38,100 nt of DNA from Alteromonadales bacterium (GCA_964228485.1 CAXRAF010000023.1:1-38100); one strand, 5' to 3'. Positions 2,806 to 22,381 are shown, numbered from the stretch's first letter. Made by a program: numbers and translations. Notes: generated by a model not told the origin, from the letters alone.

Positions 2806-3051
2806 ATGTTTTTCAGAGTTGTCATCAAGACGCTTGAGTTACTAGTCCACCTTTTTTTAATTGTTGGCGTACCTGTCATCTATTTAGACATCACTACGGG
2901 TTACAATAAATATCGCTTACCAGAGCAAATGCCGGTAGTGTATGTCTACTGGCTGGTATATATCGTCATTATTGCCATTATCTATGGCATATCTCAGAAA
3001 ACCAAAAAGTATCAGCGCCCTGATTGTACAAAAAATTCTAGCGACACCTAA
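2806..3051 (+). CDS. small membrane protein (81 aa, two predicted TM helices)
   Basis: Two hydrophobic stretches. Starts 5 nt after the preceding stop and ends 8 nt before the permease gene. Confidence 0.5.
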   Translation: MFFRVVIKTLELLVHLFLIVGVPVIYLDITTGYNKYRLPEQMPVVYVYWLVYIVIIAIIYGISQKTKKYQRPDCTKNSSDT

Positions 3052-3059: not shown

Positions 3060-4349
3060 ATGTCCAACGTCTATAAACCCTATACAGCCGTTGCGATAAT
3101 CGTCGCAAATATGATTGGCACTGGGGTATTCACAAGTCTTGGATTTCAATTACTCGGCATACAATCTGGCTTTGCCATTCTTATGCTGTGGGTGGTGGGT
3201 GGCATCATGGCCTTATGTGGTGCTCTGACTTATGCTGAATTAGGCGCAACTTATCCACGCTCTGGTGGAGAATATAACTTTCTAACGCGGATCTATCACC
3301 CTGTCGCAGGATTCACATCCGGATGGGTTTCTTCAACTATTGGATTTTCAGCACCGACCGCCCTGGCTGCGATTACCTTTGGTACCTACTTATCCTCTGT
3401 GATCCCATCCTTATCGAGTGATTGGTTAGCGATTGTCCTCATTATTGCCATGGCCATTATTCACTCGACTAAACGTTCGGGTAGCGGTTCTACTCAGGTT
3501 ATTTTTACAGCGATAAAAATCCTTTTTATTGTTCTATTCATCATCAGTGGCATTGTGCTGATTGAGAATCCTCAGCCAGTTATATTTACTCCTGATAAAG
3601 ACAACATACCGCTGCTCTTTACCGCAGGATTCGCTGTTTCACTAATATATGTAAATTATGCCTATACAGGATGGAACGCAGCCACGTATATAAGCAGTGA
3701 ATTAGAATCACCGCAAAAATCCCTGCCAGCTATTTTGCTAACAGGCACATTAATTGTGACGGTTGTGTATGTCTTACTCAATTTTCTCTTCATGTACAGT
3801 ACACCAATCAATGCGATGCAGGGAAAATTAGAAATTGGTGTAATCGCCGCGCAATCTATCTGGGGTGAGTCCGGGGCAAAAATAATGGGTATATCCATGG
3901 CTCTGTTATTAATATCAACAGTAAGTGCCATGACCATTGCTGGACCGCGGGTACTTCAGGTGATCGGTGAGGATTATGATTTCTTCAAAGCGCTGGGCAA
4001 GACAAATGAGGATGGTATTCCTGCCAGAGCAATCTGGATGCAGACAGCACTGGCATTGTTATTCGTAATCACAGCATCCTTTGAATCGATACTTATTTTT
4101 TCCGGATTTGCTTTGGCATTGAATAATCTGTTTGCAGTGGCTGGTATATTTGTTAGTAGACTACGTCATAAAGAGATAGAACGCCCATACAAAACCGCGC
4201 TTTATCCGATTACACCACTCTTATACTGTGCACTTACTCTGTGGACTCTGAGTTATCTTGCGATTGAACGTCCGACAGAGATACTTGCAAGCCTCGCAAT
4301 AATTATTGCAGGCGTAGTGTTTTACTTTTTCTCGAGGAATAAACCTTAA
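3060..4349 (+). CDS. APC-superfamily amino acid permease
   Basis: About 12 hydrophobic segments. N-terminal IVANMIGTGVFTSLGF and YAELGATYPRSGGEYNF are typical of amino-acid/polyamine permeases. Confidence 0.85.
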   Translation: MSNVYKPYTAVAIIVANMIGTGVFTSLGFQLLGIQSGFAILMLWVVGGIMALCGALTYAELGATYPRSGGEYNFLTRIYHPVAGFTSGWVSSTIGFSAPTALAAITFGTYLSSVIPSLSSDWLAIVLIIAMAIIHSTKRSGSGSTQVIFTAIKILFIVLFIISGIVLIENPQPVIFTPDKDNIPLLFTAGFAVSLIYVNYAYTGWNAATYISSELESPQKSLPAILLTGTLIVTVVYVLLNFLFMYSTPINAMQGKLEIGVIAAQSIWGESGAKIMGISMALLLISTVSAMTIAGPRVLQVIGEDYDFFKALGKTNEDGIPARAIWMQTALALLFVITASFESILIFSGFALALNNLFAVAGIFVSRLRHKEIERPYKTALYPITPLLYCALTLWTLSYLAIERPTEILASLAIIIAGVVFYFFSRNKP

Positions 4350-4421: not shown

Positions 4422-5252
4422 ATGGGTAATATTGTCTGGGTGGCTTCCTATCCTAAATCGGGTAATACATGGATGCGTGCATTTCTTGGTAATTACCTTG
4501 CCAATCAAGATAAACCTGTCGATATTAATGCGCTGCACAACACGCTGCTATCTGAAGCCAATAGCTATCATTACCAGCCATACATCTCGGCTGAGAAAAA
4601 AACAACAGATGTTGATATGATGGATTTGATCCGTCTTCGCCCACGAGTTCATGCTGATATGGCTCGAAATGCACAAGGTTCAATTTTTGTTAAGACCCAC
4701 AACTTTTTGGGTGAGTACAAGGGATTTCCGCTACACAATGCCCAAGTGACATCGGGTGCTATTGTTGTGGTGCGAAATCCACTGGATGTGGTGGTGTCGA
4801 TGTCGAACTATTTTAACTATGACATTGATCACACGATTGCATTCATGGCTGATGAGCTGACTGGCACGCCAAACGAGGAGGGCAATGTGCCACAGATCAT
4901 AAGTTCTTGGTCTGTACATACCAAAAGCTGGGCTGAAAATACTGAAGATAGTGTGCTTGTTGTCAGATATGAAGACATGCTGGCTAATGCGCAAAAAACC
5001 TTCCGCAAAGTAGAATCATTTCTCAAATTAAAAAAGGATCCTAAGCGCTTACGACGAGCGATTCAATTTTCATCGTTTGAGCAACTCAAAAAACAAGAAT
5101 CACAAGTCGGCTTTGTGGAAAAATTCGAACATGCGACTGCCTTTTTTAACACCGGCAGAAAGGGTCAGTGGCAGAATATTTTGACGCAACAGCAAATCGA
5201 TACCGTAAAGAAACAACACAAGCCAATGATGGATTTATTTAAATATAGCTAA
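4422..5252 (+). CDS. PAPS-dependent sulfotransferase (Sulfotransfer_1-like)
   Basis: 5'-PSB loop SYPKSGNTWMR and 3'-PB motif GRKGQWQNILT. Confidence 0.85.
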   Translation: MGNIVWVASYPKSGNTWMRAFLGNYLANQDKPVDINALHNTLLSEANSYHYQPYISAEKKTTDVDMMDLIRLRPRVHADMARNAQGSIFVKTHNFLGEYKGFPLHNAQVTSGAIVVVRNPLDVVVSMSNYFNYDIDHTIAFMADELTGTPNEEGNVPQIISSWSVHTKSWAENTEDSVLVVRYEDMLANAQKTFRKVESFLKLKKDPKRLRRAIQFSSFEQLKKQESQVGFVEKFEHATAFFNTGRKGQWQNILTQQQIDTVKKQHKPMMDLFKYS

Positions 5253-5370
5253 GCGCCATAAGTTTGTTTCCTAAGCTGCTGAAAATAAAGCATTTCTGTC
5301 CCCAAAATGACGCAATTAAGCAGATCTCAGTGAAAATCACTAAAAAATCAGAAACTTTTTGTTACTTTTC

Positions 5371-5400
5371 TTGCATATTTGTTACTTAAGCGGTTATTAT
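5371..5400 (+). promoter_or_regulatory. candidate sigma70 promoter for TBDR1 (TTGCAT-N18-TATTAT)
   Basis: -35 TTGCAT at 5371-5376 and -10 TATTAT at 5395-5400. The -35 element is flanked by the 10-bp direct repeat tttgttactt at 5358-5367 and 5378-5387. Confidence 0.4.
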
Positions 5401-5517
5401 CCGGACGTGGGTAGCCTCTTCGAGGCTGCGTATTATGTGCTGTACGCATGGTTTACTAATATGTGTAAAGTGCAATAGGTTAGTTAACTAACTTCCAATT
5501 AACCGGGGAGAAAAACA

Positions 5518-8151
5518 TTGATTAAACAAAATAAACATAATCCTCTCGTTAAGGCTATCAGAAATGCATTACTAGCAGGTGCTGCAATTTCTATGGCTGC
5601 AACTGGTTCAGCTCTTGCAGAAGAAGCTGACGATGAAGAGGCAGATGAAGAAGAAAATACGGTAACCGTCACGGGTTCACGTATTAAAAGAACTGACATC
5701 GAAGGTTCATTACCTGTAACAGTCATTGATCGCGAGATGATTGAATTATCAGGTGAGGCTAACGCTGCAGATTTCTTGAGAAGCATGACATTTAACAGTT
5801 CTGGTTCGTTCCGTCCTCAGTCTGGTAGCTCTGCTCAGGGTACTGCATCAATCAGTTTACGTGGTATTGGTTCATCACGTACATTGGTATTGGTTGACGG
5901 TCGTCGTCTACCTAAGTCACCTTCAACAGGTTCAAACCAAGACTTGAACACTATCCCAATGGGTGCAATCGAGCGTATTGAGGTACTGTCTGACGGTGCA
6001 TCTGCGATCTACGGTTCTGACGCTCTAGGTGGTGTTGTAAACGTCATCACTCGTAAAGACTTCGAAGGCGCGCAAATCATGTTAGGTCAGGCAAGCGTTA
6101 GTATTCCTGCTAACGGTGGTGACCGTGAAAACGGTAGCATAACCTTTGGTGCTTCAAGCGACACATCAAGCCTGATAGGTGGTGTATCGTGGAACAAGCG
6201 TGACATTATCTTCGCACGTGACTTCTACTTCAACACTCCTGGTGGATCTGTGTATGGTAACTCTTATACAACAATCACTGGCGGTTTTGATGATTTCAAC
6301 TGGACCTCAATTCCAGACGGTCAAGGCGGTACTGCTTGTGACTTCCCAGGAACAGGTTTCTACACTCGAGCTAACAGTTTTGCTGTTAACGCTGCACAGA
6401 CTCGTTGTGCTTACGACTTCACATTGGTATCTGCAGACGAAGCGTCTACAGGTAATACCTCTATCTGGTTGAAAGCAACTCACGAGTTTAGTGATGATTG
6501 GTCTGTTTGGGCTAATGCTAGCATCAACAAATCAAGCTCGTTTGGTCGTTATGCTCCAGTACCAGATTCAAGCTACTTCTCAGTACCTCTGACTGGTAAC
6601 AGCCCTAATAACCCTACTAACCCTAACGGTAACGTATGGGATGGCGTCTCTACAGTTGGCGTACCTGTAAACTGGTGGCATCGTTTCGACGCACTGGGTA
6701 ATCGTGACAGTGAAGTAGACAATGAGCTGTCAGAGCTTATGACTGGTATGACAGGTAATGTTGGTGATGTTGAGTTAGATTTCGGTCTACGTATCACTAA
6801 GAACCTAACTTACGATATCGGTCGTAACTATCTGTTACGTTCTGCAGCTGCAGCGTATATCGAAAGTGGTGCATATGACTTACGCAACCCTTATGCGACT
6901 CCAGATAATGTCTTGAACGCAATGAAGGTTGTTATTAGCCGTATTTCTCAGTACAACCAGAATGAAGCATGGTTCACTGCAGCATTCGACGCGTTCGAAA
7001 TGGAAAATGGTTTCGCACAAATGTTCGTCGGTATGGAGTATCGTGAAGAAGACTACAATGACCAGTATGACTCTCTGTCAGAAGCTGGCCAGGTTGGTGG
7101 TTCTGCAGGTAACTCAGCTGGTGGTACACGTGACGTAACTGCTTACTACTTCGAGTTGTTAATGCCTGTAATGGATAACCTAGAAGTAACTGTAGCTGGT
7201 CGTCAAGATGACTACTCAGATTACGGTTCTGACTTCTCACCAAAAGTGTCTGCTCGTTGGGTTGTCACTGATGACATGACTATACGTGCATCTTATGGTG
7301 AAGGTTTCCGTGCACCGACACTCGACATTCTGACTCAGAAAGATTCGTTCTCAGCTGACTCAGTTCGTGACGAGCAGTCTTGTTTGGCCCAGGGTCAGCC
7401 AGCTAACTGTAGCTTGCAGATTAACGCTCTGGTAACAGCGAATCCATCACTGAGTTCAGAGCAGTCAGAGCAGTACTCTTTCGGTTTTGCTCATGAAGCA
7501 ACTGATTGGTTCAACTACTCTATCGACTACTACAACATTGCAATCTCTAACCGTATTACAGGTTTCTCTTCACAGGGCCTGATTGCCAGAGAGATTGCTG
7601 GTGACCCGATTCCTCCAGGTTTGGGTGTAACTCGTAATCCTACTAACGGCGCGATTACACAAATCGTTCGTGGTTTCGGTAACGAGGGTACAGTTGATAC
7701 CTCAGGTCTTGATATCAACGCTGTATTTTCATACGAAATGCTAGGTGGTCGATTCAACCACAACGTTCAGATCGGTTACTTACTTGATCAGGCTGTTGAC
7801 GGTGGTCGTAACCTAGTAGGTGACCCTGGTACTCCAGAGGCTCGTATGGTTATCTCTAACTCTTATGAGATGGATAACTTCAGCATAGGTTACAACCTGA
7901 ACCTAATCGGTAACCAGTGTGATGAGATTGTTGCTGGTGAGTGTATTGGTAACGTACCAACTTGGGTTACACATGATGTGCAATTCAACTACTTCGCCCC
8001 TTGGGACGGACGTATTACAGTTGGTGTTCGTAACGCTGGCGAGAAGAGACCTCCAATTGGTCTTGGTGCCGTCGGCTCACGTGACTATGACTTCAGCCTG
8101 TACGATGCGTACGGTCGAATCACTTACGTGAACTACACGCAAACTTTCTAA
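5518..8151 (+). CDS. TonB-dependent outer-membrane receptor (877 aa)
   Basis: TTG start with GGGGAG 8 nt upstream. Signal peptide ...ATGSALA, acidic linker, TonB-box/plug region NTVTVTGSRIKR...IERIEVLSDGASAIYGSDALGGVVNVITR, and a C-terminal ...YTQTF beta-signal. Confidence 0.92.
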   Translation: MIKQNKHNPLVKAIRNALLAGAAISMAATGSALAEEADDEEADEEENTVTVTGSRIKRTDIEGSLPVTVIDREMIELSGEANAADFLRSMTFNSSGSFRPQSGSSAQGTASISLRGIGSSRTLVLVDGRRLPKSPSTGSNQDLNTIPMGAIERIEVLSDGASAIYGSDALGGVVNVITRKDFEGAQIMLGQASVSIPANGGDRENGSITFGASSDTSSLIGGVSWNKRDIIFARDFYFNTPGGSVYGNSYTTITGGFDDFNWTSIPDGQGGTACDFPGTGFYTRANSFAVNAAQTRCAYDFTLVSADEASTGNTSIWLKATHEFSDDWSVWANASINKSSSFGRYAPVPDSSYFSVPLTGNSPNNPTNPNGNVWDGVSTVGVPVNWWHRFDALGNRDSEVDNELSELMTGMTGNVGDVELDFGLRITKNLTYDIGRNYLLRSAAAAYIESGAYDLRNPYATPDNVLNAMKVVISRISQYNQNEAWFTAAFDAFEMENGFAQMFVGMEYREEDYNDQYDSLSEAGQVGGSAGNSAGGTRDVTAYYFELLMPVMDNLEVTVAGRQDDYSDYGSDFSPKVSARWVVTDDMTIRASYGEGFRAPTLDILTQKDSFSADSVRDEQSCLAQGQPANCSLQINALVTANPSLSSEQSEQYSFGFAHEATDWFNYSIDYYNIAISNRITGFSSQGLIAREIAGDPIPPGLGVTRNPTNGAITQIVRGFGNEGTVDTSGLDINAVFSYEMLGGRFNHNVQIGYLLDQAVDGGRNLVGDPGTPEARMVISNSYEMDNFSIGYNLNLIGNQCDEIVAGECIGNVPTWVTHDVQFNYFAPWDGRITVGVRNAGEKRPPIGLGAVGSRDYDFSLYDAYGRITYVNYTQTF

Positions 8152-8170
8152 GTTTTACTTATAAAGTTGA

Positions 8171-8200
8171 AAAGGCGCTCTATGAGCGCCTTTTTATTTT
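8171..8200 (+). terminator. rho-independent terminator after TBDR1
   Basis: aaaggcgctc-tat-gagcgccttt gives a 7 GC-rich bp stem plus 3 A:T bp, followed by tttttatttt. Starts 20 nt after the TBDR stop. Confidence 0.8.
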
Positions 8201-8214
8201 TCACGATAAAAATT

Positions 8215-9141
8215 ATGAAACTAGATCAATGGAGCCGGTATTGGCAAGCGGGGCAACTCACCTCGTTGCCACAAGATTTTGCTGTCAATTATGAGGGCGA
8301 GATTTATGATTATTGGGTGTCATATTTTTCTGAATTGCCGAGCGCAGCTTCAGTACTTGATTTATGTACAGGTAACGGTGCTGTAGCACTACTCGCTCAA
8401 ACATTTTCTGATCAACAATCTAAACAATTATCTATTACCGGTTTAGATGGCGCTTCAATTAGTCTAGAAGCCATTCACAAACGCTACCCTGATTTGTCTA
8501 AACAAATTGACGCGGTTAATTTTATTGATAATCAAGCCATTGAAACCATGTCTCTTGATGATAAGTTTGATTTAATTACAAGCCAGTACGGTATTGAATA
8601 TTGTGACTGGTCTGTTGTGGCATCAATAGTAACGCAACACCTTAAGCCTGGAGGTCAATTTGTTATTATTACTCATGCTCCTGAAACAGACATTACGCAG
8701 TACATGAAGCAGGAGCGATCAGAGTATGACGCAATTAAAGAAGCAAAATTTTTCAATGCCGTGGATAATATTCTGACAGGACAAATTAACTTCGCTGCAT
8801 TTAAGAAACAGATGGTGTCTCTGCAAAAGCACTTGGCACGAATGCTTCAAAGCAAATCAAGTCCATTAATTCAGGGAATCTATAACTTTACTCAGCATAT
8901 TATTGCGAGTGACTATGAGACCTTTACTCAACAGCGTAATCAATTAGAGTCTTATTACCTCGATCACTTATTTGCCTATGAAAGACTTAATGACATATTG
9001 ACTGTCTCGGAGCGATTAGCCGAAAATAAGGAATGGTATAAACCGTTTTGTGATGCTGGACTTGATATAATTTCGGTCAAGCCAATCTTACAAGGTGGAA
9101 GACATTTAGCAGGTATTGGATATCATTTTGCCAAACCTTAA
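8215..9141 (+). CDS. class I SAM-dependent methyltransferase
   Basis: Motif I VLDLCTGNGAVALL. N-terminal WSRYWQAGQ is reminiscent of TPMT/halide-thiol methyltransferase N-termini (tentative). I use the ATG at 8215 because the 8167 start would translate through the terminator hairpin. Confidence 0.8.
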   Translation: MKLDQWSRYWQAGQLTSLPQDFAVNYEGEIYDYWVSYFSELPSAASVLDLCTGNGAVALLAQTFSDQQSKQLSITGLDGASISLEAIHKRYPDLSKQIDAVNFIDNQAIETMSLDDKFDLITSQYGIEYCDWSVVASIVTQHLKPGGQFVIITHAPETDITQYMKQERSEYDAIKEAKFFNAVDNILTGQINFAAFKKQMVSLQKHLARMLQSKSSPLIQGIYNFTQHIIASDYETFTQQRNQLESYYLDHLFAYERLNDILTVSERLAENKEWYKPFCDAGLDIISVKPILQGGRHLAGIGYHFAKP

Positions 9142-9155
9142 TTTACGATTACTCA

Positions 9156-11690
9156 ATGAAGAATAAATTAACACCTCTATCTGTTTTAAAAGTGAATCCT
9201 GACTATCAGTTATTAGTTAGAGGTGCGAGCATTCAATGTACAAAGCTTGATATCCGTGAAGCTGCCATTCCACTTCAACCACTGCATCTGTTATTGATTG
9301 AAACATTCCTATCCGCTAAGAATGTGACGGACGCATTTCAGGCATTCATTAATTCTGATTTAACGAAACGACTCATGGGCAATGTGCCTGAAAACGCGGT
9401 TTTGAGTCGTATTGCGGAATTGTATAGCAAAGACATTTTAATTGAATCACCAGCATCGAGCGTATCTGACTCTGTTGCGATAACGATGCAGTCGCCTAAG
9501 AAAGCTCCAGTCGATGATGTGTATACGGGTTGTTATATAACACATCGTAATTTAGCAATACATTTCGCTGAATCTGGATTCATTGCCAAATTTAGCGACG
9601 CGAGTCGTGATCAAAAGATTTCTATCAATGAGTTATTTACTTTGTTGGCAATTGGGCAGGCGCAAGAGATAGAAAAGTCTGATCGCTATAAGGCACCACA
9701 TATTGCATCAGAGGATCATTGGGAGATGATCGCAGGCTTTATTACCAGTGGAGTGATTGTAAAGAAACAGATCCTCGAGACTGAGGATCAAACAGAAAAG
9801 GTTGAGCATGAGTCTTCTTCGACAGCCTGGCAAGAACTTGAACCAGAATGTAATAAAACGCCAATTTATTTCGTTCCTCATACAGAGAATCATTACCCAT
9901 TAGCTTTGGGGCTAATCTATACAGCCATTCAAGATTATGAGGGCGGAGGTTTGTTAGACAAGTTTCAACTAATCCCGATTGTCTACATGAATGCAGAGCA
10001 GTTTTTATCGGGCCCGTATAAAAAATTTGGCTCAGGTGTTTGGCTATTCTCGAACTATTTGTGGTCGAGTGATACAAACATGGCATTGTCGAAACACGTC
10101 AAGAAAGATTCTAAGAAAAATATCACGATTCATGGTGGACCAAGCACACCAGATTATGAGCAGGCCTGTGAAGAATTCTTTGCTGAACATACGTCTGTAG
10201 ACATTGCCGTTCATGCTGAGGGCGAGGTTGCCATTGCTCAGATATTAAGCGCCATGATGCATTCAGATGACCATGTCTCCTATAACAAGCAGGATATGTC
10301 TGAAATAGCTGGCATTTCTTTCCGAGATGAGAAGGATGGTATCTCTATCGTGCAGCACACTGCGTCGCGAACACGCATGGCTGATCCTAACATTATCCCA
10401 TCGCCTTATATGGCAGGTGTGTTTGACCATTATGGCTCAGATATTGAAGCGGCAATCATTGAAACCAATCGTGGCTGCCCATTCGGCTGCACCTTTTGTG
10501 ATTGGGGCTCTGCGATTAATCAAAAAGTCAGGCGCTTTGATATGGATCGTGTGAAAGAGGAAATCGAATGGATTGCACGAAATAAAACCAAAGTACTGTG
10601 GATTGCAGATGCTAACTTCGGAATGCTGGATCGTGATGTCGAAGTAGCGCAAACGATTATCGATTTAAAGGAACAATACGGCTTTCCACATGAGGTTGTT
10701 GTTAACTACACCAAAAACACCACAGTTCGTCTGGTTGAGATTATCAAGATCTTCACTGAGGGTGGCATTATCAGTCAGGGCGTTATTTCTATTCAAAGTA
10801 TGGACGCCAAGACTCTGGAAGTGATTGATCGCAAAAATATTAAACTCAGTAAATATGATGAACTGAGAAAGATTTTTTCCGATCTTAAGTTACCGCTGTC
10901 AACCGACCTAATGCTTGGTCTACCAGGTACAACGATGACAGCACTTAAAAATGATCTGCAGCATTATATTGATGCAGATGTCCCCGTTAAGGCCTACCCA
11001 ACACAATTATTGCCCAATAGCCCGATGGCAGATCCCGATTACATGCGCAAGTATGAAATCCAAACCTATGATGATGGTTTTTTAAAATCGACCTATAGCT
11101 ACACCGAAGAAGATCTCATCAAGATGAAAGGTCTGTATAAGACCTTCACTATGGCTGACGGGTACGGGCTGTTGCGTTATGTCATTCGCTTCCTGCAGTG
11201 GGAATACAACATAAAAGCGATTGATTTCATTGCAGAGCTTATGGTTTCAATTAAAGACAATCCTATGCAGTATCCATTATTGTCATATGCAACGGTCTTT
11301 TTTGAGACTGAGAAGTCAATTCCGGGTGGTTGGCCATTATTTTATGCCCAGTTAAAAAACTACATTCTGGACAAATATTCAGTGAGTGATGACTCGGCAT
11401 TGGATACTGTTTTAAAGGTGAATGCCGCCGTTATGCCCGATGAAGCGGTTGCTTATCCAATGACCATTCATCTAGACCATGACATCATCCAATACTTTAT
11501 CGCTCAGCAGCAAAAATCTGATGATGATAAGCCAGAAGCGCTTCATACCTATGCGCCAGGCGAATTAGTGATTTCAGATCCAGATGGTATGGTGAATATC
11601 GATGCACAATTCTTGCAGTATGATTCACATCAGTTTTTCTGGGAGTTATTATCTGATGTATCAAGAGTGCGATCTGCCTTCACACTCTAA
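9156..11690 (+). CDS. B12-binding-domain-type (class B-like) radical SAM enzyme, 844 aa, with a long N-terminal extension
   Basis: CX3CX2C cluster motif ETNRGCPFGCTFCDWG (Cys441/445/448, nt 10476-10499). A Rossmann-like segment IYFVPHTENHYPLALGLIYTAIQ...ITIHGGPSTP lies upstream. About 230 aa N-terminal and about 200 aa C-terminal are unassigned. Confidence 0.85.
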   Translation: MKNKLTPLSVLKVNPDYQLLVRGASIQCTKLDIREAAIPLQPLHLLLIETFLSAKNVTDAFQAFINSDLTKRLMGNVPENAVLSRIAELYSKDILIESPASSVSDSVAITMQSPKKAPVDDVYTGCYITHRNLAIHFAESGFIAKFSDASRDQKISINELFTLLAIGQAQEIEKSDRYKAPHIASEDHWEMIAGFITSGVIVKKQILETEDQTEKVEHESSSTAWQELEPECNKTPIYFVPHTENHYPLALGLIYTAIQDYEGGGLLDKFQLIPIVYMNAEQFLSGPYKKFGSGVWLFSNYLWSSDTNMALSKHVKKDSKKNITIHGGPSTPDYEQACEEFFAEHTSVDIAVHAEGEVAIAQILSAMMHSDDHVSYNKQDMSEIAGISFRDEKDGISIVQHTASRTRMADPNIIPSPYMAGVFDHYGSDIEAAIIETNRGCPFGCTFCDWGSAINQKVRRFDMDRVKEEIEWIARNKTKVLWIADANFGMLDRDVEVAQTIIDLKEQYGFPHEVVVNYTKNTTVRLVEIIKIFTEGGIISQGVISIQSMDAKTLEVIDRKNIKLSKYDELRKIFSDLKLPLSTDLMLGLPGTTMTALKNDLQHYIDADVPVKAYPTQLLPNSPMADPDYMRKYEIQTYDDGFLKSTYSYTEEDLIKMKGLYKTFTMADGYGLLRYVIRFLQWEYNIKAIDFIAELMVSIKDNPMQYPLLSYATVFFETEKSIPGGWPLFYAQLKNYILDKYSVSDDSALDTVLKVNAAVMPDEAVAYPMTIHLDHDIIQYFIAQQQKSDDDKPEALHTYAPGELVISDPDGMVNIDAQFLQYDSHQFFWELLSDVSRVRSAFTL

Positions 11691-11936
11691 CTAAATTCGA
11701 TGTTCGATATACCCTCTCTCTGCAGTTAAAAGTGCTCTGTCAGTTAGGATAATGGCAATAGGACAGAGGTGTCATTACTCTGATGGCTCAACGCCAATAG
11801 TGGGATGACTCTAAGATATTAATGCAATTAAATAAACGTTAATTCAGGACGTTTAATCCGTCTATTCGTTGGACTTGGACCGGCAATATCGTTATTCTCA
11901 TGAGAGTCCATTAAGTAGATATATTCCGGATATACT

Positions 11937-13493
11937 ATGATTAAAAACATTGTCATTGTCGGTGGTGGTACTGCAGGTTGGATGACGGCTTCGGCCTTTG
12001 TAAAACATCTACCAAAAAGCTGTAAGATTCGTCTGATAGAGTCTGATGCGATTGCTACTGTCGGCGTAGGTGAAGCTACCATTCCTGTGATTCGCCAGTT
12101 TAATAGTATCTTAGGCATTGATGAACGTGAGTTCATGAGTAAAACAAATGCCAGTTTTAAATTGGGTATTCGCTTTGAAAATTGGGCGCATCGTGGCGAT
12201 AGTTATGACCATGCTTTCGGGTATTATGGCATACCCATGAATGATGTCTCATTTCATCATTATTGGGTAAAGCAACATCAACATGGCAAGGGCGGTAATA
12301 TTGAAGATTACAACGTTCCTGCTGTAGCTTCAGAAGAGCAACGATATGCTCATCGACAGTACAATGATAGTCGTTTTGACTCGCGCTATTTTTATGCATT
12401 CCAATTCGATGCCAGTCTCTACGCTCAATTTCTCCGCAACTGGTCTACCTCTCGTGGTGTCACCAGAACCGAAGGGAAAGTCCAAGAAATTTATCAAAAC
12501 CAAGAAACCGGGTACATTACTTCAATCTTGCTAGAGTCAGGCGAGAAAGTCAGTGCCGATTTATTTATCGACTGCACAGGCTTCCGAGGCATACTTATTA
12601 ATCAAACTATGGGCGTAAACTTCCGTGACTGGAGTCACTGGTTACCATGTAACCGTGCCTGGGCGGTGTCATCATCTTATCCGAGTGCTGATTCATCGAT
12701 TCCACCATACACCCGCGCAAGGGCGTTAGAGGCCGGTTGGCAGTGGCGTATTCCGCTACAGAATCGCTCAGGAGACGGCAATGTATTCTGTTGCGACTTT
12801 ATTTCTGAAGAACGTGGACGCGAGCAGTTACTAGAGAATATCGAAGGTGACCCATTGAATGAACCTCGATTATTGAAGTTCACCACGGGTATGAGAGAGC
12901 GATTATGGGATAAGAATTGTGTGGCAATTGGTTTGTCTGCAGGATTCTTGGAGCCATTAGAATCAACGAGTATTGCTCTGATTCAAGCGACCATCATGAT
13001 CTTCTTGAAAAACTTCCCTGATAAAGATTTTGATAGCATTCGTCGTGATGAGTTTAACCGCAGGATGGTCAATAAATATGAGGAGTCTCGAAACTTCTTG
13101 ATCCTGCACTATCACGCTATTCAACGTGAAGACACAGAGTTCTGGAAGTATTGCAAAAACATGTCCGTGCCAGATGAGCTGAGACATCGACTAGACCTGT
13201 TCAAAGAAACGGGCTATGTGTCAAACCTAGCCTCAGATCTCTTCCTTGAGCACAATTGGCTAGCCGTACTCTTTGGTCAAGACATCGTTCCGACTAATTA
13301 CGACTTGCGAGTGAATATGGTCTCTGATGAGGAATCTTTGGCGAGTATGGAAAGTATGAGCAGGGAAATCTCAAATGTTATTCAAGAAATGCCCACGCAT
13401 AACCAAACATTGGCTGATTATTGTGCAGGCGATCTAATTTCTCTAATTAAGTCAACCAACACAGCACCTACAGTAGATGGAGTAGTGCAATAA
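11937..13493 (+). CDS. flavin-dependent halogenase family protein (tryptophan-halogenase-like), motifs intact
   Basis: Has IVGGGTAGW (GxGxxG), GVGEATIP, the FKLG lysine, GWQWRIPLQ (WxWxIP) and GFLEPLESTSI. Confidence 0.87.
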   Translation: MIKNIVIVGGGTAGWMTASAFVKHLPKSCKIRLIESDAIATVGVGEATIPVIRQFNSILGIDEREFMSKTNASFKLGIRFENWAHRGDSYDHAFGYYGIPMNDVSFHHYWVKQHQHGKGGNIEDYNVPAVASEEQRYAHRQYNDSRFDSRYFYAFQFDASLYAQFLRNWSTSRGVTRTEGKVQEIYQNQETGYITSILLESGEKVSADLFIDCTGFRGILINQTMGVNFRDWSHWLPCNRAWAVSSSYPSADSSIPPYTRARALEAGWQWRIPLQNRSGDGNVFCCDFISEERGREQLLENIEGDPLNEPRLLKFTTGMRERLWDKNCVAIGLSAGFLEPLESTSIALIQATIMIFLKNFPDKDFDSIRRDEFNRRMVNKYEESRNFLILHYHAIQREDTEFWKYCKNMSVPDELRHRLDLFKETGYVSNLASDLFLEHNWLAVLFGQDIVPTNYDLRVNMVSDEESLASMESMSREISNVIQEMPTHNQTLADYCAGDLISLIKSTNTAPTVDGVVQ

Positions 13494-13494
13494 C

Positions 13495-14973
13495 ATGACT
13501 AAGCCAATGCACCTGGTGATTGCAGGTACGCCACTCGAGGCTTCTTTACTGACAGCTTGGTTCAGAAACTCTTACACCACAGAGGATTTAAATATTACTC
13601 TGGTTACTGAGGCTAGTTCTGTTAGACAGAGAGTTCATCAATTGAACTATAAAAATTTAGGCGTCATTTCTCACTTAGGTCTAGATGAGAAGGCTTTTAT
13701 GAAATTAACGGGTGCTACCTTCAATCTAGGTACCTGGCATAAAGGTTGGCTCGATAATTCACATCATTATTTTCAACCATTTGGAACTCACGGCGGTTCA
13801 ATGGATTTCGTGTCATTTCAGCACTACTTGTTTAAAAGACGCGGCATCGATACAGATATCAGTTATGAAGATTATTCTTTATCCTGTGTGGCTGCGTATA
13901 AAGGAAAGTTCACTCATCCGAAGTCAGATCAAAACTCCATTGCCTCTACCATCGGCTATTCTTTAGCGATAGATGAACAGGTAACTGTGAGAGGCTTACT
14001 AGACTATTTTTCAAATGTAGAAGTTACATATCATGATGCTTCGGTCTCTTCGGTCTCCGTCTCTGATGGTGTCATTAATGCGCTTGAGTTATCTGATGGT
14101 AGCCAACTGTCAGCAGACATATATCTAGACTGTACTGGAACTGAAAGACTCTTGATCAAGGAGTTGCCTGACTATGTTTTTCATCCTTGGAGCGAGCTTG
14201 GTAGTTATAATCGTACAGATTTCACCATCAATGCCACAGATGATTTACCTCCCTACAGCGAAATAATTAAGACAAAGTCTGGATGGTTGAGGTTAGATCG
14301 CAGTCAGACGACAACTGCTGGACAGTTCTATAGTAAGAGTCAGAACTCGACAGATGAAGTAATCAATGAGCTCTCAGAGGTATTAAACGGTGCCGAAGTC
14401 TCATTAGGAATGAGTGAAGAGGTTCAACCAGGTCGTTTAGAGAGCCTATGGTTAGGTAATTGTATCGCCATTGGTGAAACCGCAGCCTGCTTTGAAGCGC
14501 TTGATTGTAGTCCAATACATTCGTTAATCGCTCAGACATTTCGTTTATTGGATTTATTCCCGCGAAGCGAAGATATTGCCCTGCAGCGTTTCGAGTTTAA
14601 TCGTAAAGCAATTTGGTGGCATGACAATATTCGTGATTTTAATGTACTCCGTCACGCAATGCTCAACAAAAGACAAACTTTGTCTGAGTTGATTTCCTCT
14701 GAGCTACCGGAAAGCTTGAAACATAAACTATCGTTATATCAAAGCAACGGTCAGATGGCTGATTCTGAGGAAGAACCATTTCATGATGACTATCTGACTT
14801 CAACACTTATCGGGTTAGAGCTGTTTCCGCAAAAATATAATCCGTTGCTGGAATCATTTGATATGAATGAGTTGAACAATCGGTTTAACTCAATGCGAGA
14901 CAAAATTTCACTGGCTTCAGATATCATGCCAGTGCATCAAGATTACTTACAGAGATATTTGTCGGTTAACTAG
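13495..14973 (+). CDS. degenerate halogenase-family paralogue (predicted non-catalytic)
   Basis: Collinear with the upstream halogenase, but GGGTAGW becomes AGTPLEA, GEATIP becomes VHQLNY, FKLG becomes FNLG, GWQWRIP becomes GWLRLDR, and FLEPLEST becomes FEALDCS. Starts 1 nt after the upstream stop. Confidence 0.75.
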   Translation: MTKPMHLVIAGTPLEASLLTAWFRNSYTTEDLNITLVTEASSVRQRVHQLNYKNLGVISHLGLDEKAFMKLTGATFNLGTWHKGWLDNSHHYFQPFGTHGGSMDFVSFQHYLFKRRGIDTDISYEDYSLSCVAAYKGKFTHPKSDQNSIASTIGYSLAIDEQVTVRGLLDYFSNVEVTYHDASVSSVSVSDGVINALELSDGSQLSADIYLDCTGTERLLIKELPDYVFHPWSELGSYNRTDFTINATDDLPPYSEIIKTKSGWLRLDRSQTTTAGQFYSKSQNSTDEVINELSEVLNGAEVSLGMSEEVQPGRLESLWLGNCIAIGETAACFEALDCSPIHSLIAQTFRLLDLFPRSEDIALQRFEFNRKAIWWHDNIRDFNVLRHAMLNKRQTLSELISSELPESLKHKLSLYQSNGQMADSEEEPFHDDYLTSTLIGLELFPQKYNPLLESFDMNELNNRFNSMRDKISLASDIMPVHQDYLQRYLSVN

Positions 14974-15028: not shown

Positions 15029-15784
15029 TTATTTCCCTTGCTGTCCGTATTTATAGCGTTCTAAGATATCCTTCCTTATATCCGCGATAGCTTCGTGCGC
15101 ATCGACGAGTTGCTTGTATGACGAATCCGGTAATCCAAGCGAACACCCCATACTTAATTCCGTACTACTCATTCGAAAAGCAATTACGGGCTGTGGGATA
15201 CCAACATACTGCGCAGCCAGTGGTCCATCGACAATACCTGCTGCCCATAAGTCGCCACGACCTTTAGCAAACATTCTAGCTGCCGTTCTATCATTTTGCG
15301 CTTTCACAAGAGTCGCTCCGTGATTGGTATCTAGCCCCTTACCGGCAACCCCATCTATTTTTGCTACAACTGTATAGTTCTTAAGCTGTTCCAATGATGT
15401 GATTTCAATTTTCGAATCTTTGTGTTTATATAATGCAAGTCCACCCAAGATCATCGGACCTACCCAGCGGTACTTATCCCTTCTTTCCAGTGTGTTATTC
15501 ATGATGAAAATACATGAGTTGGGATCTTTTGACTGCCTTTTAAGTAATCTCAGCCAGGGCATTACTTCAATATTCGCTACTAGGTCAGTCCTTTTAAGAA
15601 TTTCTTGAACGATTTCGTAAGCAATACCAGTGAGCTCGTTTGTGCTGTCCTTGTAGTAGACATAAGGATGATTAATTTCCGTGTACAGAGTAATTTGATT
15701 ATTACTTTTGACTGAAGTGGAACTCTCAGCAGCAATGGCTCCTAATGAGAGAATGAGTATTAATTTGGCGGCGATTAGCTTCAT
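15029..15784 (-). CDS. periplasmic solute-binding protein, family 3 (amino-acid-type), orphan
   Basis: Signal peptide MKLIAAKLILILSLGAIAAE and an SBP_bac_3-like body. No permease or ATPase partner is adjacent. Confidence 0.78.
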   Translation of the reverse strand: MKLIAAKLILILSLGAIAAESSTSVKSNNQITLYTEINHPYVYYKDSTNELTGIAYEIVQEILKRTDLVANIEVMPWLRLLKRQSKDPNSCIFIMNNTLERRDKYRWVGPMILGGLALYKHKDSKIEITSLEQLKNYTVVAKIDGVAGKGLDTNHGATLVKAQNDRTAARMFAKGRGDLWAAGIVDGPLAAQYVGIPQPVIAFRMSSTELSMGCSLGLPDSSYKQLVDAHEAIADIRKDILERYKYGQQGK

Positions 15785-15827
15785 ATGACTGAGTAATAAT
15801 ATTGTTGATCATGTTGTTGTATGGAAG

Positions 15828-15861
15828 GTTGTTTTACTTCACATGTTGTTTTACTTCACAT
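15828..15861. repeat. perfect 17-bp tandem direct repeat x2 (gttgttttacttcacat)
   Basis: Copies at 15828-15844 and 15845-15861. A partial third copy (catgttgtt) lies at 15810-18. Sits 44 nt upstream of the SBP start on the - strand. Confidence 0.9.
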
Positions 15862-16200
15862 ATTAGAAATACTTTATATTCTATTACATATTATAACTAT
15901 TGCCATGTTCTAGCCACTCAAACTTTTTAGAATCGTTTTTATCTTGGATGCTCAATAACAGACTCTGTCAGTCAATTTATGTTGTCTCGCTCCAATTCAT
16001 GTCCCATATGATTGGATTATCTAAACCAATTTATAGAATACTTAATGTGTACCAATATCCTTCGAAATTGCGTTATTGAATAGCAGAGATGAACTATAAA
16101 TCAATTAACTGTCTGATAAACAGAACAAAAATATACTTCTCAGAGGCCGTGAACACTATATCCTAGGTGATAATCGCTATAAAGTGAGTTGCTAGGGATG

Positions 16201-16247
16201 ATTGAATACGTATGTAACAGGCATATGCATAATTGAATACGTATGCA
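16201..16247. promoter_or_regulatory. two copies of a 14-bp near-palindrome with central CG (candidate LacI-type operators)
   Basis: attgaatacgtatg occurs at 16201-16214 and 16232-16245, 31 bp apart. The cores are TGAATACGTATGTA and TGAATACGTATGCA. They lie about 145-185 nt upstream of the TBDR2 start. Confidence 0.4.
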
Positions 16248-16388
16248 TAAATTAGTATGTAATTCTGAGATTCATTATCATAAGAGTGCGAAAAGTAACA
16301 TATTCAAATATGTAACAAAAATAAAATAATGATCACTCGCAAGGTTATTAAACAACAAATCACTTGTCTGATTATGGGGACTCAAGAA

Positions 16389-19187
16389 ATGAATAATTTC
16401 AAGCCAAATAAACTTATGCTCGCAATGTTATCCTCAGGGTTAATCGCTTTAGGCACTTCATCCTTAATAGCTGAGGAGGCAGATGACGAAGAGGAAAAAG
16501 CAGAGGAAGAAAATACCATAACAATCACTGGTTTTCGTGGCAGTATTATAGAATCGATTAATACTAAGCGATATTCAACCAGCGTTGTTGAATCAATCTC
16601 TGCAGAGGATATTGGTAAATTACCAGACTCATCTATTGCTGAATCAATTGCACGTTTACCCGGTATTGCTGCTCAGCGTCTGGATGGTCGAGCTAGCCGC
16701 GTGACAATACGTGGTTTCGGTGAGAATGAATCAGGAACAACATTCAATGGCCGAGAGCAAGTATCTATCTCTGATAACCGGGGTGTAGAGTTTGACTTGT
16801 ACCCATCAGAAATCATGAGCGGTGTTACTGTTTATAAAACACCGGATGCTTCAATCGATGGCGAAGGTATTGCGGGTGTGATTGATCTCCAAACCATCAG
16901 TCCTCTGACTCAAGATGAAAGGGTCATGCAGATCAATGGTCAATATGAGATGACCTCTCTTGAAAAGCTAAACCCGGATGGTCATGATTCTGGCTTCAGA
17001 GGCACGTTTACCTTCGTTGACAAATTTGCTGATGATAAGCTCGGCGTAGCCTTTGCTTATTCTATGATGGAGTCTCCTAATCAGGAAGAACGCTGGAATG
17101 CATGGGGTTATCCTAACTTTGGCGTGGATGGCACTGATTATTATATCTTAGGTGGAGCCAAGCCCTTTGTTCGCTCCTCGCTGTTAGATCGCGATACAGT
17201 GATGCTTGTTGTCGAAGCTGCGCCTACTGAAAATCTTAAAGTTACTTTCGATGCATTAAATGTAAACTTTCTAGATGAAAAACGTCTGCGTGGTATTGAA
17301 ATACCATTTGCATGGGGGCAGGGCGCTGTATCCGCCAATACGGTTGAGTCGAATGGCTTTATCTCATCGGCAACAACAACAGGTCAACGCGTCGTCGTTC
17401 GAAATGACTACGAGACGCGCGAAGCCGATCTAACTAACTTTGGCTTTAACGTTGAGTACACCGTATCTGAAGATCTAAATTTAGAGTTCGATATGAGCAG
17501 TTCAAAAGTTGAACGCGAAATTTACTCATTAGAGAGCTATTCTGGTACTGGTCGTGGTAGCGATCGCGGTGTAGCTGATACGCTGACTTATACCATGGGT
17601 GCTGGCAATGCCGGTGCTACATTTGCTCATGGCCTGAACTATGCAGACTATAACCTGATCCAATTAGGTGGCCCACAATCATGGGGTTGGTCAAGTGCTC
17701 TGAATGATTCTCTTGGTATTACAGGTACTGAGTATGAGAATCAGGCGCAAGATGGCTTCCTGAATACACCGACTATCGATGATGAGTTAAGCTCACTGCG
17801 TTTTGCCGCTGAGCAGGCGCTTGATGGTGATGTCATTTCTAGCCTGACATACGGTGTGTACTACAGAGAGCGTGAGAAGAACAAATCATCGGACGGTTTC
17901 TTCATGACCCTGAGTGCCTTCAGTTATCCTGATAATCCAGGTATGCAGATGGTGCCATCTGAGTATCAATTAGGTACTGTGAGTCTGGATTTCTTGGGTA
18001 TGGGTAACATGATTGCCTATGATCCAATGGCATTGATTGCTAATGGTTACTACACCTTCTTATCTGAATCATTGACCAGTACATCGCACTTAACGCAATC
18101 ATGGAATGTCAAAGAAGAAACAACTTCGCTATTTGTGAAAGCTGACATCAATACAGAGGTTGGTGGTATGCCGCTAACGGGTAATTTTGGTGTCAGATAT
18201 ACACAGACCGATCAGTCTTCCGCAGGATTTGCTGGTAACTTGAATGGTAATGGACGTATCGTGGTATCACCCATCAGTAACTCACATGATTACTCACATG
18301 TGTTGCCAAGCTTGAATCTGGCATTACAGATGGATGACAGTCAAATACTGCGCTTTGGTATTGCCGAGACAATATCGCGCCCACGTATGGATGAGATGAA
18401 TAGTAATGTCTCCATCAACTACAACCAACAACCAGATAACAACGGTAACTATTGGAGTGTAAATGGTGGTAATACTAAGCTCGAGCCAAAAGAGGCATTA
18501 GGCATTGACCTAACTTACGAGAACTACTTCTCTAATGAAGGTTACTTCTCAGTAGCATACTTTTATAAAGATCTCGAACAGTGGATATTTGATGGTAACT
18601 ACTTCCTCGATTTACCTGGTGTAGTTGATCCGAATACTGGCCTGGTTCCACCAACCTCAGGTGCGACTGGCTCAGGTAAGATCAATGCTGGCGGTGGTGA
18701 TCTAAGTGGTTACGAGGTTTCACTCTCTATGCCACTGAGTGAATTCACCGATTCACTGGAAGGATTTGGTGTCATACTAAGCCACACAGGCCTGAGTTCA
18801 AGCATCAAAATTCCTGGAACTGATAATGACTTCCAGCTTCCAGGTTTATCCGATAGCATCTCAACATTTACGATGTACTATGACCTCAATGGCTTCTCAG
18901 CCAGAGCTAGCATGCGTAAGCGTGATGACTTTAAGGGTGATGTATATGGTCTAGGTTTCAGCACCAATCAGGTTGATATCCTAGGCGAGACTATCTGGGA
19001 TGCTCAGATAGGCTATGACTTCGGTCAAGCGGGTGTTGAAGGTTGGGAAGGATTGTCTGTCTTCTTGCAGGCACAGAACCTGACCAACGAGCCATTCACA
19101 TCATATGTGAATGGTGACCCACTGCAGGTACGTGATTATCAGAACTATGGTAAATACTATCTGCTGGGATTCAGCTACAAACTTTAA
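16389..19187 (+). CDS. TonB-dependent outer-membrane receptor (932 aa from ATG 16389)
   Basis: GGGGA sits 8 nt upstream of ATG 16389. Signal peptide MNNFKPNKLMLAMLSSGLIALGTSSLIA, acidic linker, plug region NTITITGFRGS...VESISAEDIGKLPDSSIAESIARLPGI, and a long beta-barrel. Confidence 0.92.
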   Translation: MNNFKPNKLMLAMLSSGLIALGTSSLIAEEADDEEEKAEEENTITITGFRGSIIESINTKRYSTSVVESISAEDIGKLPDSSIAESIARLPGIAAQRLDGRASRVTIRGFGENESGTTFNGREQVSISDNRGVEFDLYPSEIMSGVTVYKTPDASIDGEGIAGVIDLQTISPLTQDERVMQINGQYEMTSLEKLNPDGHDSGFRGTFTFVDKFADDKLGVAFAYSMMESPNQEERWNAWGYPNFGVDGTDYYILGGAKPFVRSSLLDRDTVMLVVEAAPTENLKVTFDALNVNFLDEKRLRGIEIPFAWGQGAVSANTVESNGFISSATTTGQRVVVRNDYETREADLTNFGFNVEYTVSEDLNLEFDMSSSKVEREIYSLESYSGTGRGSDRGVADTLTYTMGAGNAGATFAHGLNYADYNLIQLGGPQSWGWSSALNDSLGITGTEYENQAQDGFLNTPTIDDELSSLRFAAEQALDGDVISSLTYGVYYREREKNKSSDGFFMTLSAFSYPDNPGMQMVPSEYQLGTVSLDFLGMGNMIAYDPMALIANGYYTFLSESLTSTSHLTQSWNVKEETTSLFVKADINTEVGGMPLTGNFGVRYTQTDQSSAGFAGNLNGNGRIVVSPISNSHDYSHVLPSLNLALQMDDSQILRFGIAETISRPRMDEMNSNVSINYNQQPDNNGNYWSVNGGNTKLEPKEALGIDLTYENYFSNEGYFSVAYFYKDLEQWIFDGNYFLDLPGVVDPNTGLVPPTSGATGSGKINAGGGDLSGYEVSLSMPLSEFTDSLEGFGVILSHTGLSSSIKIPGTDNDFQLPGLSDSISTFTMYYDLNGFSARASMRKRDDFKGDVYGLGFSTNQVDILGETIWDAQIGYDFGQAGVEGWEGLSVFLQAQNLTNEPFTSYVNGDPLQVRDYQNYGKYYLLGFSYKL

Positions 19188-19213
19188 TTTAATTTTTGTC
19201 TCCCACAATCTTG

Positions 19214-20796: not shown

Positions 20797-20798
20797 GC

Positions 20799-22379: not shown

Positions 22380-22381
22380 AA

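Follow-up and report, generated by a model that had tools for sequence, protein, structure and literature searches.

A TonB receptor-linked cassette of methyltransferase, radical SAM, sulfotransferase and halogenase genes built around a putative RRE-fused TokK-type methylase in marine Gammaproteobacteria

The radical S-adenosylmethionine (SAM) enzymes TokK and ThnK of carbapenem biosynthesis and CysS of cystobactamid biosynthesis combine a cobalamin-binding Rossmann domain, a radical SAM barrel and a large C-terminal domain, and carry a CX3CX2C motif and a lower-axial tryptophan. CysS reportedly pairs with an O-methyltransferase, CysQ. Cobalamin-dependent radical SAM C-methylases also occur in pathways for peptides that are made ribosomally and modified after translation (RiPPs), as with PoyB/C, and RiPP-modifying enzymes may bear RiPP recognition elements (RREs), two of them in tandem in the oxidase ThcOx. 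Methanobactin operons are said to encode, together with a RiPP core, a TonB-dependent transporter (MbnT) and a 3'-phosphoadenosine-5'-phosphosulfate (PAPS) sulfotransferase (MbnS), and their product is said to be secreted and re-imported. Genes annotated as tryptophan halogenases lie beside TonB-dependent receptors in glycan-uptake loci of Xanthomonas, Caulobacter and Alteromonas. Here we analyze locus 1 (positions 4422-14973) of a 38.1-kb contig from an uncultured gammaproteobacterium, the whole of which is called the window below. Its six open reading frames (ORFs), all on the plus strand, encode in order a 276-aa PAPS sulfotransferase, the TonB-dependent receptor TBDR1, a class I SAM methyltransferase, an 844-aa radical SAM enzyme, the flavin-dependent halogenase Hal1 and its paralogue Hal2. 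The methyltransferase stop codon and the radical SAM ATG are 14 nt apart, the radical SAM and Hal1 genes 246 nt, and Hal1 and Hal2 1 nt. An earlier account made from the sequence alone (the sequence-only reading) had reported these ORFs, their motifs and spacings and the lack of any carbohydrate-active enzyme (CAZyme), all of which we found at the same coordinates by ORF calling and Pfam; searches with Pfam and NCBIfam profiles also agree with its family assignments.

What is new in locus 1 is a tailoring cluster built on a TokK-type methylase with a predicted RRE fusion and on a strictly coupled receptor-methyltransferase pair. The cassette is uncharacterized and widespread in marine and saline Gammaproteobacteria; a full-text literature search found no paper on a receptor-methyltransferase-radical SAM cassette. 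We tentatively read the locus as cytoplasmic tailoring of a peptide-like, receptor-tied substrate by methylation, radical C-methylation, sulfation and halogenation, the product being most probably released and recaptured. Signal peptides are absent from all locus 1 enzymes of the window and the cofactors are costly (PAPS, two SAM per radical methylation, FADH2), which together argue for synthesis rather than degradation. A peptide or protein substrate is suggested by the RRE-like didomain, by sulfotransferase relatives of the peptide type, by tetratricopeptide repeat (TPR) sulfotransferases resembling tyrosylprotein sulfotransferase, by S9 oligopeptidases, by oxygenases resembling prolyl 4-hydroxylase (P4H) and by a group C halogenase. 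A specific receptor is the constant companion of these enzymes, and TonB systems adjoin in places; both suggest recapture of the product. Because precursor and exporter are missing, our confidence in this reading stays somewhat short of even. Ratios of nonsynonymous to synonymous substitution (dN/dS) indicate purifying selection on every gene of the cluster.

The radical SAM enzyme is the most informative member of the set. The sequence-only reading had placed it in the cobalamin-binding class B, and profile searches bear this out. The NCBIfam KedN5 family matches residues 295-625 (3e-69; 234 bits, below the cut-off of 700), and a profile of 17 homologues searched against PDB sequences retrieves TokK at 1e-72 and CysS at 2e-63, with 22-24% identity across ~650 aligned residues. 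An AlphaFold 2 model built from a 62-sequence alignment (pLDDT confidence 85.5) superimposes in Foldseek on TokK with a template modelling (TM) score of 0.74 over 661 residues and on CysS with 0.72-0.74, and this includes the large C-terminal domain, which in TokK is distinct from those of TsrM and OxsB (bioRxiv 10.1101/2021.07.10.451909). C441, C445 and C448 are invariant across the 62 homologues, as is W303, which aligns with the lower-axial Trp76 of TokK. An invariant Val515 occupies the position of Arg280, the residue that anchors the substrate in TokK. The shared fold and W303, together with the change from Arg280 to Val515, point to a TokK/CysS-type cobalamin radical SAM methylase that probably forms a distinct subfamily with a different substrate. 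Unlike TokK and CysS, it stands in a receptor-linked gammaproteobacterial context, with no carrier protein, nonribosomal peptide synthetase, polyketide synthase or beta-lactam genes nearby. PoyB/C-type enzymes are more remotely similar (TIGR03975, 4e-11). A TsrM-type C2-methylase was considered and rejected: the model reaches TM scores of only 0.45-0.51 against TsrM, compared with 0.74 against TokK, and the lower-axial residue is Trp rather than Arg (Arg69). Full-length orthologues of ~840 aa occur in Marinicella, Arsukibacterium, Rheinheimera, Glaciecola, Planctobacterium, Aliikangiella and Lysobacterales.

The clearest departure from TokK and CysS is an additional N-terminal region of about 225 residues. 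Residues 1-228 are variable in sequence and are modelled (pLDDT 84.9) as two beta3-alpha3 winged-helix repeats, RRE-like 1 at residues 10-97 (nt 9183-9446) and RRE-like 2 at residues 126-204 (nt 9531-9767), followed by the cobalamin Rossmann domain (~235-410), the radical SAM barrel (~430-640) and the TokK-type C-terminal domain (641-844). When this didomain was compared with the PDB using Foldseek, nearly all matches down to about E 0.7 were RRE-containing RiPP enzymes (ThcOx, TbtB, TigE, MccB, TruD, LynD, TbiB1, lasso B1, TglHI, SuiB); the exceptions include PKMT1 and MINA53. ThcOx, with its own tandem RREs, matches along both repeats (219 columns, E 2.6e-4), and each half matches the free-standing RREs TbiB1 or lasso B1 with target-normalised TM scores of 0.63-0.66. 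BLAST detected no similarity between the two halves. The modelled architecture would thus be RRE-RRE-cobalamin domain-radical SAM-TokK C-terminal domain, of which our literature search found no description, and it favours a peptide substrate. Unlike other RRE-dependent enzymes, the didomain has a sequence unique to its own radical SAM family: its profile gave 36 hits among 1.84 billion representatives, all within that family.

Genome comparisons show how these genes keep company. The comparative loci, numbered L001 and so on, come from GTDB species representatives or metagenomic relatives. One set was seeded with the radical SAM protein and comprises 20 GTDB species representatives with a full-length orthologue, neighbours being counted within 10 kb, plus five close metagenomic relatives (25 loci). 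The other was seeded with the methyltransferase and comprises 80 loci, of which the 22 metagenomic ones with usable context were counted, with a limit of 8 kb for the radical SAM gene. A TBDR1-like receptor, 42-75% identical to TBDR1 among orthologues, adjoins the methyltransferase gene in 21 of the 22 methyltransferase-seeded loci. Less regular companions there are the 276-aa sulfotransferase (9/22), TPR-sulfotransferases in up to four copies (9/22), the radical SAM gene (8/22), PF13759 2-oxoglutarate (2OG) oxygenases (7/22), S9 peptidases (5/22), Y_Y_Y hybrid sensor kinases (5/22) and halogenases (5-6/22). Seeding with the 844-aa protein, as the sequence-only reading had proposed, places the methyltransferase nearby in 9-10 of the 20 loci and a TBDR1 orthologue in eight, followed by S9 peptidase (5/20), TPR-sulfotransferase (4/20) and the 276-aa sulfotransferase (3/20); a halogenase is near in only two. 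All five close metagenomic relatives keep TBDR1, methyltransferase and radical SAM together, and three keep the halogenase pair. The tightest unit is therefore receptor plus methyltransferase, which the radical SAM gene joins in about a third to a half of the loci; the radical SAM enzyme, sulfotransferases and halogenases are variable additions, and the three sulfotransferase families, secreted S9 peptidases and 2OG oxygenases vary between loci. The recurrence of this content in differing gene order (L012, L013, L094, L107, L109) argues for functional linkage rather than chance. The coherent cassette claimed in the earlier account thus recurs in many lineages, around a receptor-methyltransferase core that it had not singled out.

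The methyltransferase starts at ATG 8215. The longer ORF, from the TTG at 8167, runs across the terminator described below, and homologues are 308-320 aa long and begin about 10 aa before the motif HWSxYW. The family motif reads HWSxYWxxGxLTSLPQDFxxNYDGEI, followed by LDxCTGNGA. Comparison with solved structures gave only generic class I matches, the best to YcgJ (8e-9), and NCBIfam gave a weak match to CpaM (E 0.001). The N-terminal HWSxYW region (nt 8215-8330), ahead of the SAM-binding loop, recalls the W..W..G of thiopurine and halide methyltransferases; Pfam reported no such family. In relatives the methyltransferase and radical SAM genes are 14 nt apart or overlap, a pairing that resembles CysQ with CysS.

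Two alternative explanations turn on the receptor. TBDR1 could import corrinoids for the cobalamin-dependent radical SAM enzyme, in which case their adjacency would say nothing about the substrate of that enzyme. This would suit Glaciecola and Opacimonas (L008, L010, L011, L019), where metA and the cobalamin-dependent metH immediately precede the radical SAM gene and neither a receptor nor a methyltransferase gene is nearby, and also the CpaM match and the receptor plug, which is most similar to those of Cir and BtuB. An Rfam scan at gathering and at permissive thresholds, however, found no cobalamin or other riboswitch upstream of the receptor gene or elsewhere, and 13 of 21 receptor-methyltransferase pairs have no radical SAM gene within 8 kb. 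The BtuB model TIGR01779 reaches 114 bits on TBDR1 against a cut-off of 600, in the plug domain only, and the identification of TBDR1 as a BtuB-type receptor fails. TBDR1 falls below every NCBIfam equivalog cut-off, and solved structures match its plug domain only, which is uninformative for the class of ligand. We regard corrinoid supply as a very unlikely explanation of the cassette. In L001, metA lies immediately upstream of the cassette.

The receptor gene has an elaborate upstream region. Both hexamers of its sigma-70-like promoter align in seven of eight orthologous upstream regions. In the leader, a hairpin at 5411-5429 shows compensatory changes in two of its pairs, a perfect 14-nt palindrome, GTTAGTTAACTAAC, lies at 5479-5492, and a CUUCC element is predicted to pair with the Shine-Dalgarno sequence GGGAG in all six aligned leaders; three pairs of the latter helix are invariant, one is changed on one side only and one is broken in two sequences. 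This conserved leader may be a translational control element. Directly 3' of the receptor gene, a terminator hairpin occurs in seven of seven orthologous loci, with stem sequences that differ between loci. Only ~11 nt separate its T run from ATG 8215, so the methyltransferase and radical SAM genes must be expressed either by reading through the terminator or by way of a promoter within the receptor gene.

The second alternative is that the enzymes carry out post-translational modification on the receptor itself or on the TonB machinery, prior to export. The receptor is the only protein whose gene invariably accompanies the methyltransferase, no separate precursor gene was found, and every accessory family has protein-modifying relatives. 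TonB-system genes also neighbour the radical SAM gene where the receptor is absent: in Marinicella (L003, L004) it stands alone near aroKB with a TonB-like gene downstream. In cultured Aliikangiella coralliicola (L170, 13260-18301) the receptor-methyltransferase-radical SAM triad is followed by DUF3450, ExbB, ExbB, ExbD, TonB and TPR genes of the TonB2 type, and in L009 (from 7007) by at least the first gene of such a system, a DUF3450-like ORF. Yet no feature of the TBDR1 N-termini correlates with the presence of a radical SAM gene when loci with and without it are compared, and the terminator uncouples the expression levels of receptor and enzymes. We know of no precedent for a radical SAM enzyme acting on a TonB-dependent receptor, and we consider this explanation highly improbable.

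Sulfation adds to the peptide-like character of the cassette. The closest solved structures to the 276-aa sulfotransferase are the glycopeptide-aglycone sulfotransferases Teg12, Teg14 and StaL (~1e-13), and orthologues occupy the same position in L001, L082, L085 and L088. The order in L088 is sulfotransferase, TBDR1, methyltransferase, radical SAM, TPR-sulfotransferase (520 aa), Hal, Hal', SBP3, tRNA, Sulfotransfer_2 and ychF. A blastn alignment shows that the window lacks L088 positions 6839-8263, i.e. 1,425 bp that make up nearly the whole TPR-sulfotransferase gene, which L088, L080 and L081 retain; of this gene, ~60 nt at the start and ~78 nt at the end are kept between the radical SAM and Hal1 genes, together with intergenic DNA. 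What had been taken as a 246-bp gap is thus, as the alignment indicates, the recent and clean scar of a ~1.4-kb deletion and not an ancestral boundary. The Sulfotransfer_2 gene of L088 is likewise missing from the window. Compared with the widespread cassette to which it belongs, locus 1 has decayed slightly. In L106, L107 and L140-L143, receptor-methyltransferase loci without a radical SAM gene, the 276-aa sulfotransferase is joined by two to four TPR-sulfotransferase paralogues, and across the wider cassette family sulfation may be the prevailing chemistry.

Motif reading confirms the earlier description of an intact halogenase followed by a motif-dead paralogue. Hal1 retains the motifs expected of an active flavin-dependent halogenase (GxGxxG, Lys, WxWxIP and the Glu of EPLES), here as GGGTAG, the catalytic Lys in SFKLG, WQWRIP and EPLEST. 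In Hal2 the corresponding stretches read AGTPLEA, GW-LRLD and EALDCS and the Lys is replaced by Asn, so that all four features, GxGxxG, the catalytic Lys and WxWxIP among them, are lost; the Hal2 ORF is intact. The L080 orthologue has degenerated in the same way, and the second halogenase copy of L013 partly so. The lowest dN/dS of the cluster (~0.01) belongs to Hal1, whose amino acid identity is 96-99% at saturated dS; Hal2, at 0.08, evolves about ten times faster but still under purifying selection, which suggests a maintained pseudoenzyme rather than a decaying gene. Hal1 and Hal2 may form a heterodimer of a catalytic and a non-catalytic subunit.

The closest PDB entries to Hal1 are 9luq, 6y1w (Xcc4156) and 6frl (BrvH), at 1e-127 to 1e-142, and its ATIPVI and HAFGY motifs follow the ATIPxx / HxFGx pattern that marks group C halogenases, including BrvH, Xcc4156 and the peptide halogenase MibH (PMC8269204). 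BrvH refuses tryptophan, and its native substrate is not known (PMC7754283). A free-tryptophan halogenase of the PrnA/RebH/PyrH type was rejected for Hal1, which has the group C motifs instead of ATFSxx / HPFEx (PMC8269204). The sequence-only reading had proposed an aromatic, indolic or peptide substrate, drawing on TsrM and on the tryptophan-halogenase family. Its peptide option gains from the RRE-like didomain, whereas the free-tryptophan logic loses both its supports: the TsrM model TIGR04428 scores 15.8 bits (cut-off 500; E 0.003) against 234 bits for KedN5, and Hal1 is of the BrvH/Xcc4156 type and not of the free-tryptophan type (PMC7754283; PMC8269204). Like the halogenases of glycan-uptake loci, Hal1 lies near a receptor, as does Hal3 in locus 2 of the window (16329-22379), and it shares its group C motifs with BrvH and Xcc4156. 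It differs from the halogenases of glycan-uptake loci in having no CAZyme in its locus, in being paired with a conserved dead paralogue and in being embedded among methyltransferase, radical SAM and sulfotransferase genes.

Halogenases are not part of the cassette core, and locus 1 could represent two modules side by side, one of receptor, methyltransferase and radical SAM enzyme (with or without the sulfotransferase) and the other a generic receptor-associated halogenase pair comparable to Hal3. Their presence with the radical SAM gene in just two of 20 species, and with the methyltransferase in 5-6 of 22 loci, would fit such an arrangement, as would the halogenase next to a receptor and GH13 gene in the same window and the narrow clade to which Hal2 orthologues are confined (close orthologues form only three 90%-identity clusters, at 99, 82 and 68% identity). 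The non-coding stretch upstream of Hal1 could be taken for the border between the modules, but it appears to be the deletion scar described above. Halogenases also lie inside the cassette in three lineages with differing gene orders (the window clade; L012 and L094; L013 and L109), interleaved with sulfotransferase and methyltransferase genes, and no other gene of the cluster is as constrained as Hal1. On balance we judge the two-module arrangement unlikely.

In line with the earlier account, locus 1 does not look like a glycan-utilization locus. A CAZyme next to a receptor, the hallmark of carbohydrate utilization loci containing TonB-dependent receptors (CUT) and of polysaccharide utilization loci (PUL), is found in locus 2 and lacking in locus 1, where a Pfam scan of 4422-14973 detected no glycoside hydrolase, the only GH13 gene being at 20799-22379. 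Searches with tblastn returned no GH13 homologue from the 25 radical SAM-seeded (0/20 species representatives) and 80 methyltransferase-seeded loci, whose other ORFs were only partly scanned with Pfam, and no CAZyme turned up in the 25 radical SAM-seeded or the 22 counted methyltransferase-seeded loci.

Uptake of a different kind is a further alternative: the receptor might import an environmental peptide or aromatic compound, which S9 peptidases trim in the periplasm and the cytoplasmic enzymes modify for activation, detoxification or salvage. Secreted S9 peptidases are present in 5-7 of the related loci and absent from the window, Y_Y_Y sensor kinases accompany some loci, and an amino-acid permease gene lies upstream in the window and in L001. 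Kangiellaceae, Marinicella and Wenzhouxiangella, among the host taxa, are proteolytic heterotrophs. PAPS sulfation and cobalamin-dependent radical methylation are nevertheless costly, anabolic reactions without a known catabolic role, no inner-membrane transporter is conserved, and known RRE ligands are leader peptides of ribosomal precursors rather than imported fragments. The flanking permease and binding protein, cited in the sequence-only reading as a hint of amino acid chemistry, also carry less weight than they seemed to: a 65%-identical permease orthologue lies upstream of the cassette in L001 only, and the SBP_bac_3 neighbour is retained only in the nearest relatives (in L079 and L088, missing from L080). 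Import followed by modification seems to us rather improbable.

Under the tailoring reading, the enzymes could act as follows. The RRE didomain would dock a peptide substrate onto the radical SAM enzyme. The class I methyltransferase would add a heteroatom methyl or other simple methyl group, and the radical SAM enzyme would transfer one or more methyls onto an unactivated carbon using methylcobalamin and the 5'-deoxyadenosyl radical, by analogy with CysQ/CysS and TokK; the two may act in sequence, simple methylation preceding radical C-methylation. The sulfotransferase would sulfate a hydroxyl, and Hal1, partnered structurally by Hal2, would brominate or chlorinate an electron-rich aromatic ring. 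The finished molecule would be functionally tied to the receptor, most probably released and recaptured in the manner of a metallophore or signal, comparable to the MbnT/MbnS system. Like methanobactin operons, locus 1 encodes a receptor and a PAPS sulfotransferase along with enzymes of putative peptide-modifying type. It differs in that the window shows no MbnA-like precursor, no MATE exporter and no called ORF of MbnB/C type, and in that its chemistry is methylation and halogenation, not oxazolone-thioamide formation.

Several observations weigh against tailoring of a released peptide. A search of intergenic DNA from 30 cassette loci and 58 distant-homologue loci gave no conserved small ORF of precursor type: an all-against-all comparison of small ORFs yielded only shadow ORFs within conserved genes before restriction to intergenic DNA and conservation only among close relatives after it, and the gaps downstream of the radical SAM gene, including those of L170 and L085, contain nothing plausible as a precursor. 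Unlike RiPP systems, the locus and its surroundings in the window show neither a precursor gene nor an exporter, nor a dedicated leader peptidase. The RRE was detected neither by Pfam (E up to 10) nor by PDB sequence profiles and is a predicted fold only. A strong terminator divides the receptor from the enzyme genes. The radical SAM gene stands without methyltransferase or TBDR1 in 10 of 20 species, for example by metH or aroKB, and the many receptor-methyltransferase pairs that lack it point the same way. The Y_Y_Y hybrid sensor kinases of some loci are a feature seen more often at nutrient-uptake loci. The halogenase pair is uncommon, and in close relatives a TPR-sulfotransferase gene stands between it and the radical SAM gene. 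The substrate gene was not found in the locus, and a precursor may be encoded remotely.

Related enzymes extend beyond this cassette. A metagenomic protein search returned 2,716 hits to the radical SAM family. Complete genomes with the gene include OY760942.1, CP182485.1 (Opacimonas) and GCA_007004725.1 (Aliikangiella coralliicola). In L017 and L018 the gene adjoins P4H-like 2OG oxygenases. Distant homologues from Acidimicrobiia, Microthrixaceae and Halioglobus (L021-L068; 33-41% identity) mostly have their own N-terminal extension of 230-280 aa, and they occur as two to four tandem paralogues beside several PhyH dioxygenases and a double ABC ATPase; further ORFs there resemble a radical SAM-SPASM enzyme and a cytochrome P450, as judged by eye and not by Pfam scan. 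These loci fit multi-enzyme tailoring pathways and apparently form a separate uncharacterized pathway family.

A bolder proposal, which we put forward as doubtful, is that RRE-guided TokK-type methylases and receptor-coupled methyltransferases, sulfotransferases and halogenases make up a new and widespread peptide-modifying family in marine Gammaproteobacteria, probably also in Acidimicrobiia and Halioglobus. The substrate would be encoded remotely: either a ribosomal peptide of a new class, bearing sulfate, C-methyl or halogen groups and taken back up through its own TonB-dependent receptor, or else the transport machinery itself. If true, this would give receptor-linked 'tryptophan halogenases' their first functional context: such genes, without a known substrate (BrvH; PMC7754283), here stand inside a defined set of enzymes. 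The new architecture would be present in thousands of metagenomic proteins, and its RRE didomain, as a peptide-recognition handle, could serve as bait for the substrate. Receptor and methyltransferase pair so strictly as to suggest an unrecognized coupling between TonB-dependent transport and group-transfer reactions in the cytoplasm of abundant marine heterotrophs. Some carriers are in culture, such as Aliikangiella coralliicola and Arsukibacterium ikkense GCM72, which makes direct testing possible.

Table 1. Positions of locus 1 features and flanking genes in the window.
Feature	Position	Strand	Assignment and remarks
Amino-acid permease	3060..4349	+	Pfam AA_permease_2; possible peripheral member
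PAPS sulfotransferase, 276 aa, predicted cytoplasmic	4422..5252	+	Sulfotransfer_1, 98 bits; PKSGNTW, KTH, RKGQW
Sigma-70-like receptor promoter	5371..5400	+	TTGCAT, 17 nt, TTATTA/TATTAT
Conserved 5' leader of receptor gene	5411..5517	+	Hairpin, palindrome, putative anti-Shine-Dalgarno element
TonB-dependent receptor TBDR1, 877 aa	5518..8151	+	Pfam Plug and TonB beta-barrel; TTG start conserved
Predicted intrinsic terminator	8168..8203	+	13-bp GC-rich stem and T run, right after receptor stop
Class I SAM methyltransferase, 308 aa	8215..9141	+	Pfam; corrected start (longer ORF 8167-9141)
Putative cobalamin-dependent radical SAM methylase, 844 aa	9156..11690	+	Pfam Radical_SAM PF04055, 54 bits
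[4Fe-4S] motif CX3CX2C, CPFGCTFC	10476..10499	+	Residues 441-448; C441, C445, C448
Putative scar of TPR-sulfotransferase deletion	11691..11936		blastn against L088
Flavin-dependent halogenase Hal1	11937..13493	+	Trp_halogenase, 575 bits; motifs intact
Halogenase paralogue Hal2	13495..14973	+	Trp_halogenase, 221 bits; motif-dead
SBP_bac_3 periplasmic binding protein	15029..15784	-	Pfam

Two further observations concern the surroundings of locus 1. An 81-aa predicted membrane ORF without a Pfam match (2806-3051) lies upstream of the permease gene, and L001 has an 87-aa counterpart in the same position. On the other side, a block of TBDR2, Hal3 and GH13 genes sits between the SBP3 gene and a tRNA gene (22385-22458) only in the window contig and a 98%-identical relative, and L080, L085 and L088 carry a 217-219-aa Sulfotransfer_2 gene by ychF in its place. 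The region 15785-22460 has the appearance of a site, flanked by a tRNA gene, where one block of genes has replaced another.

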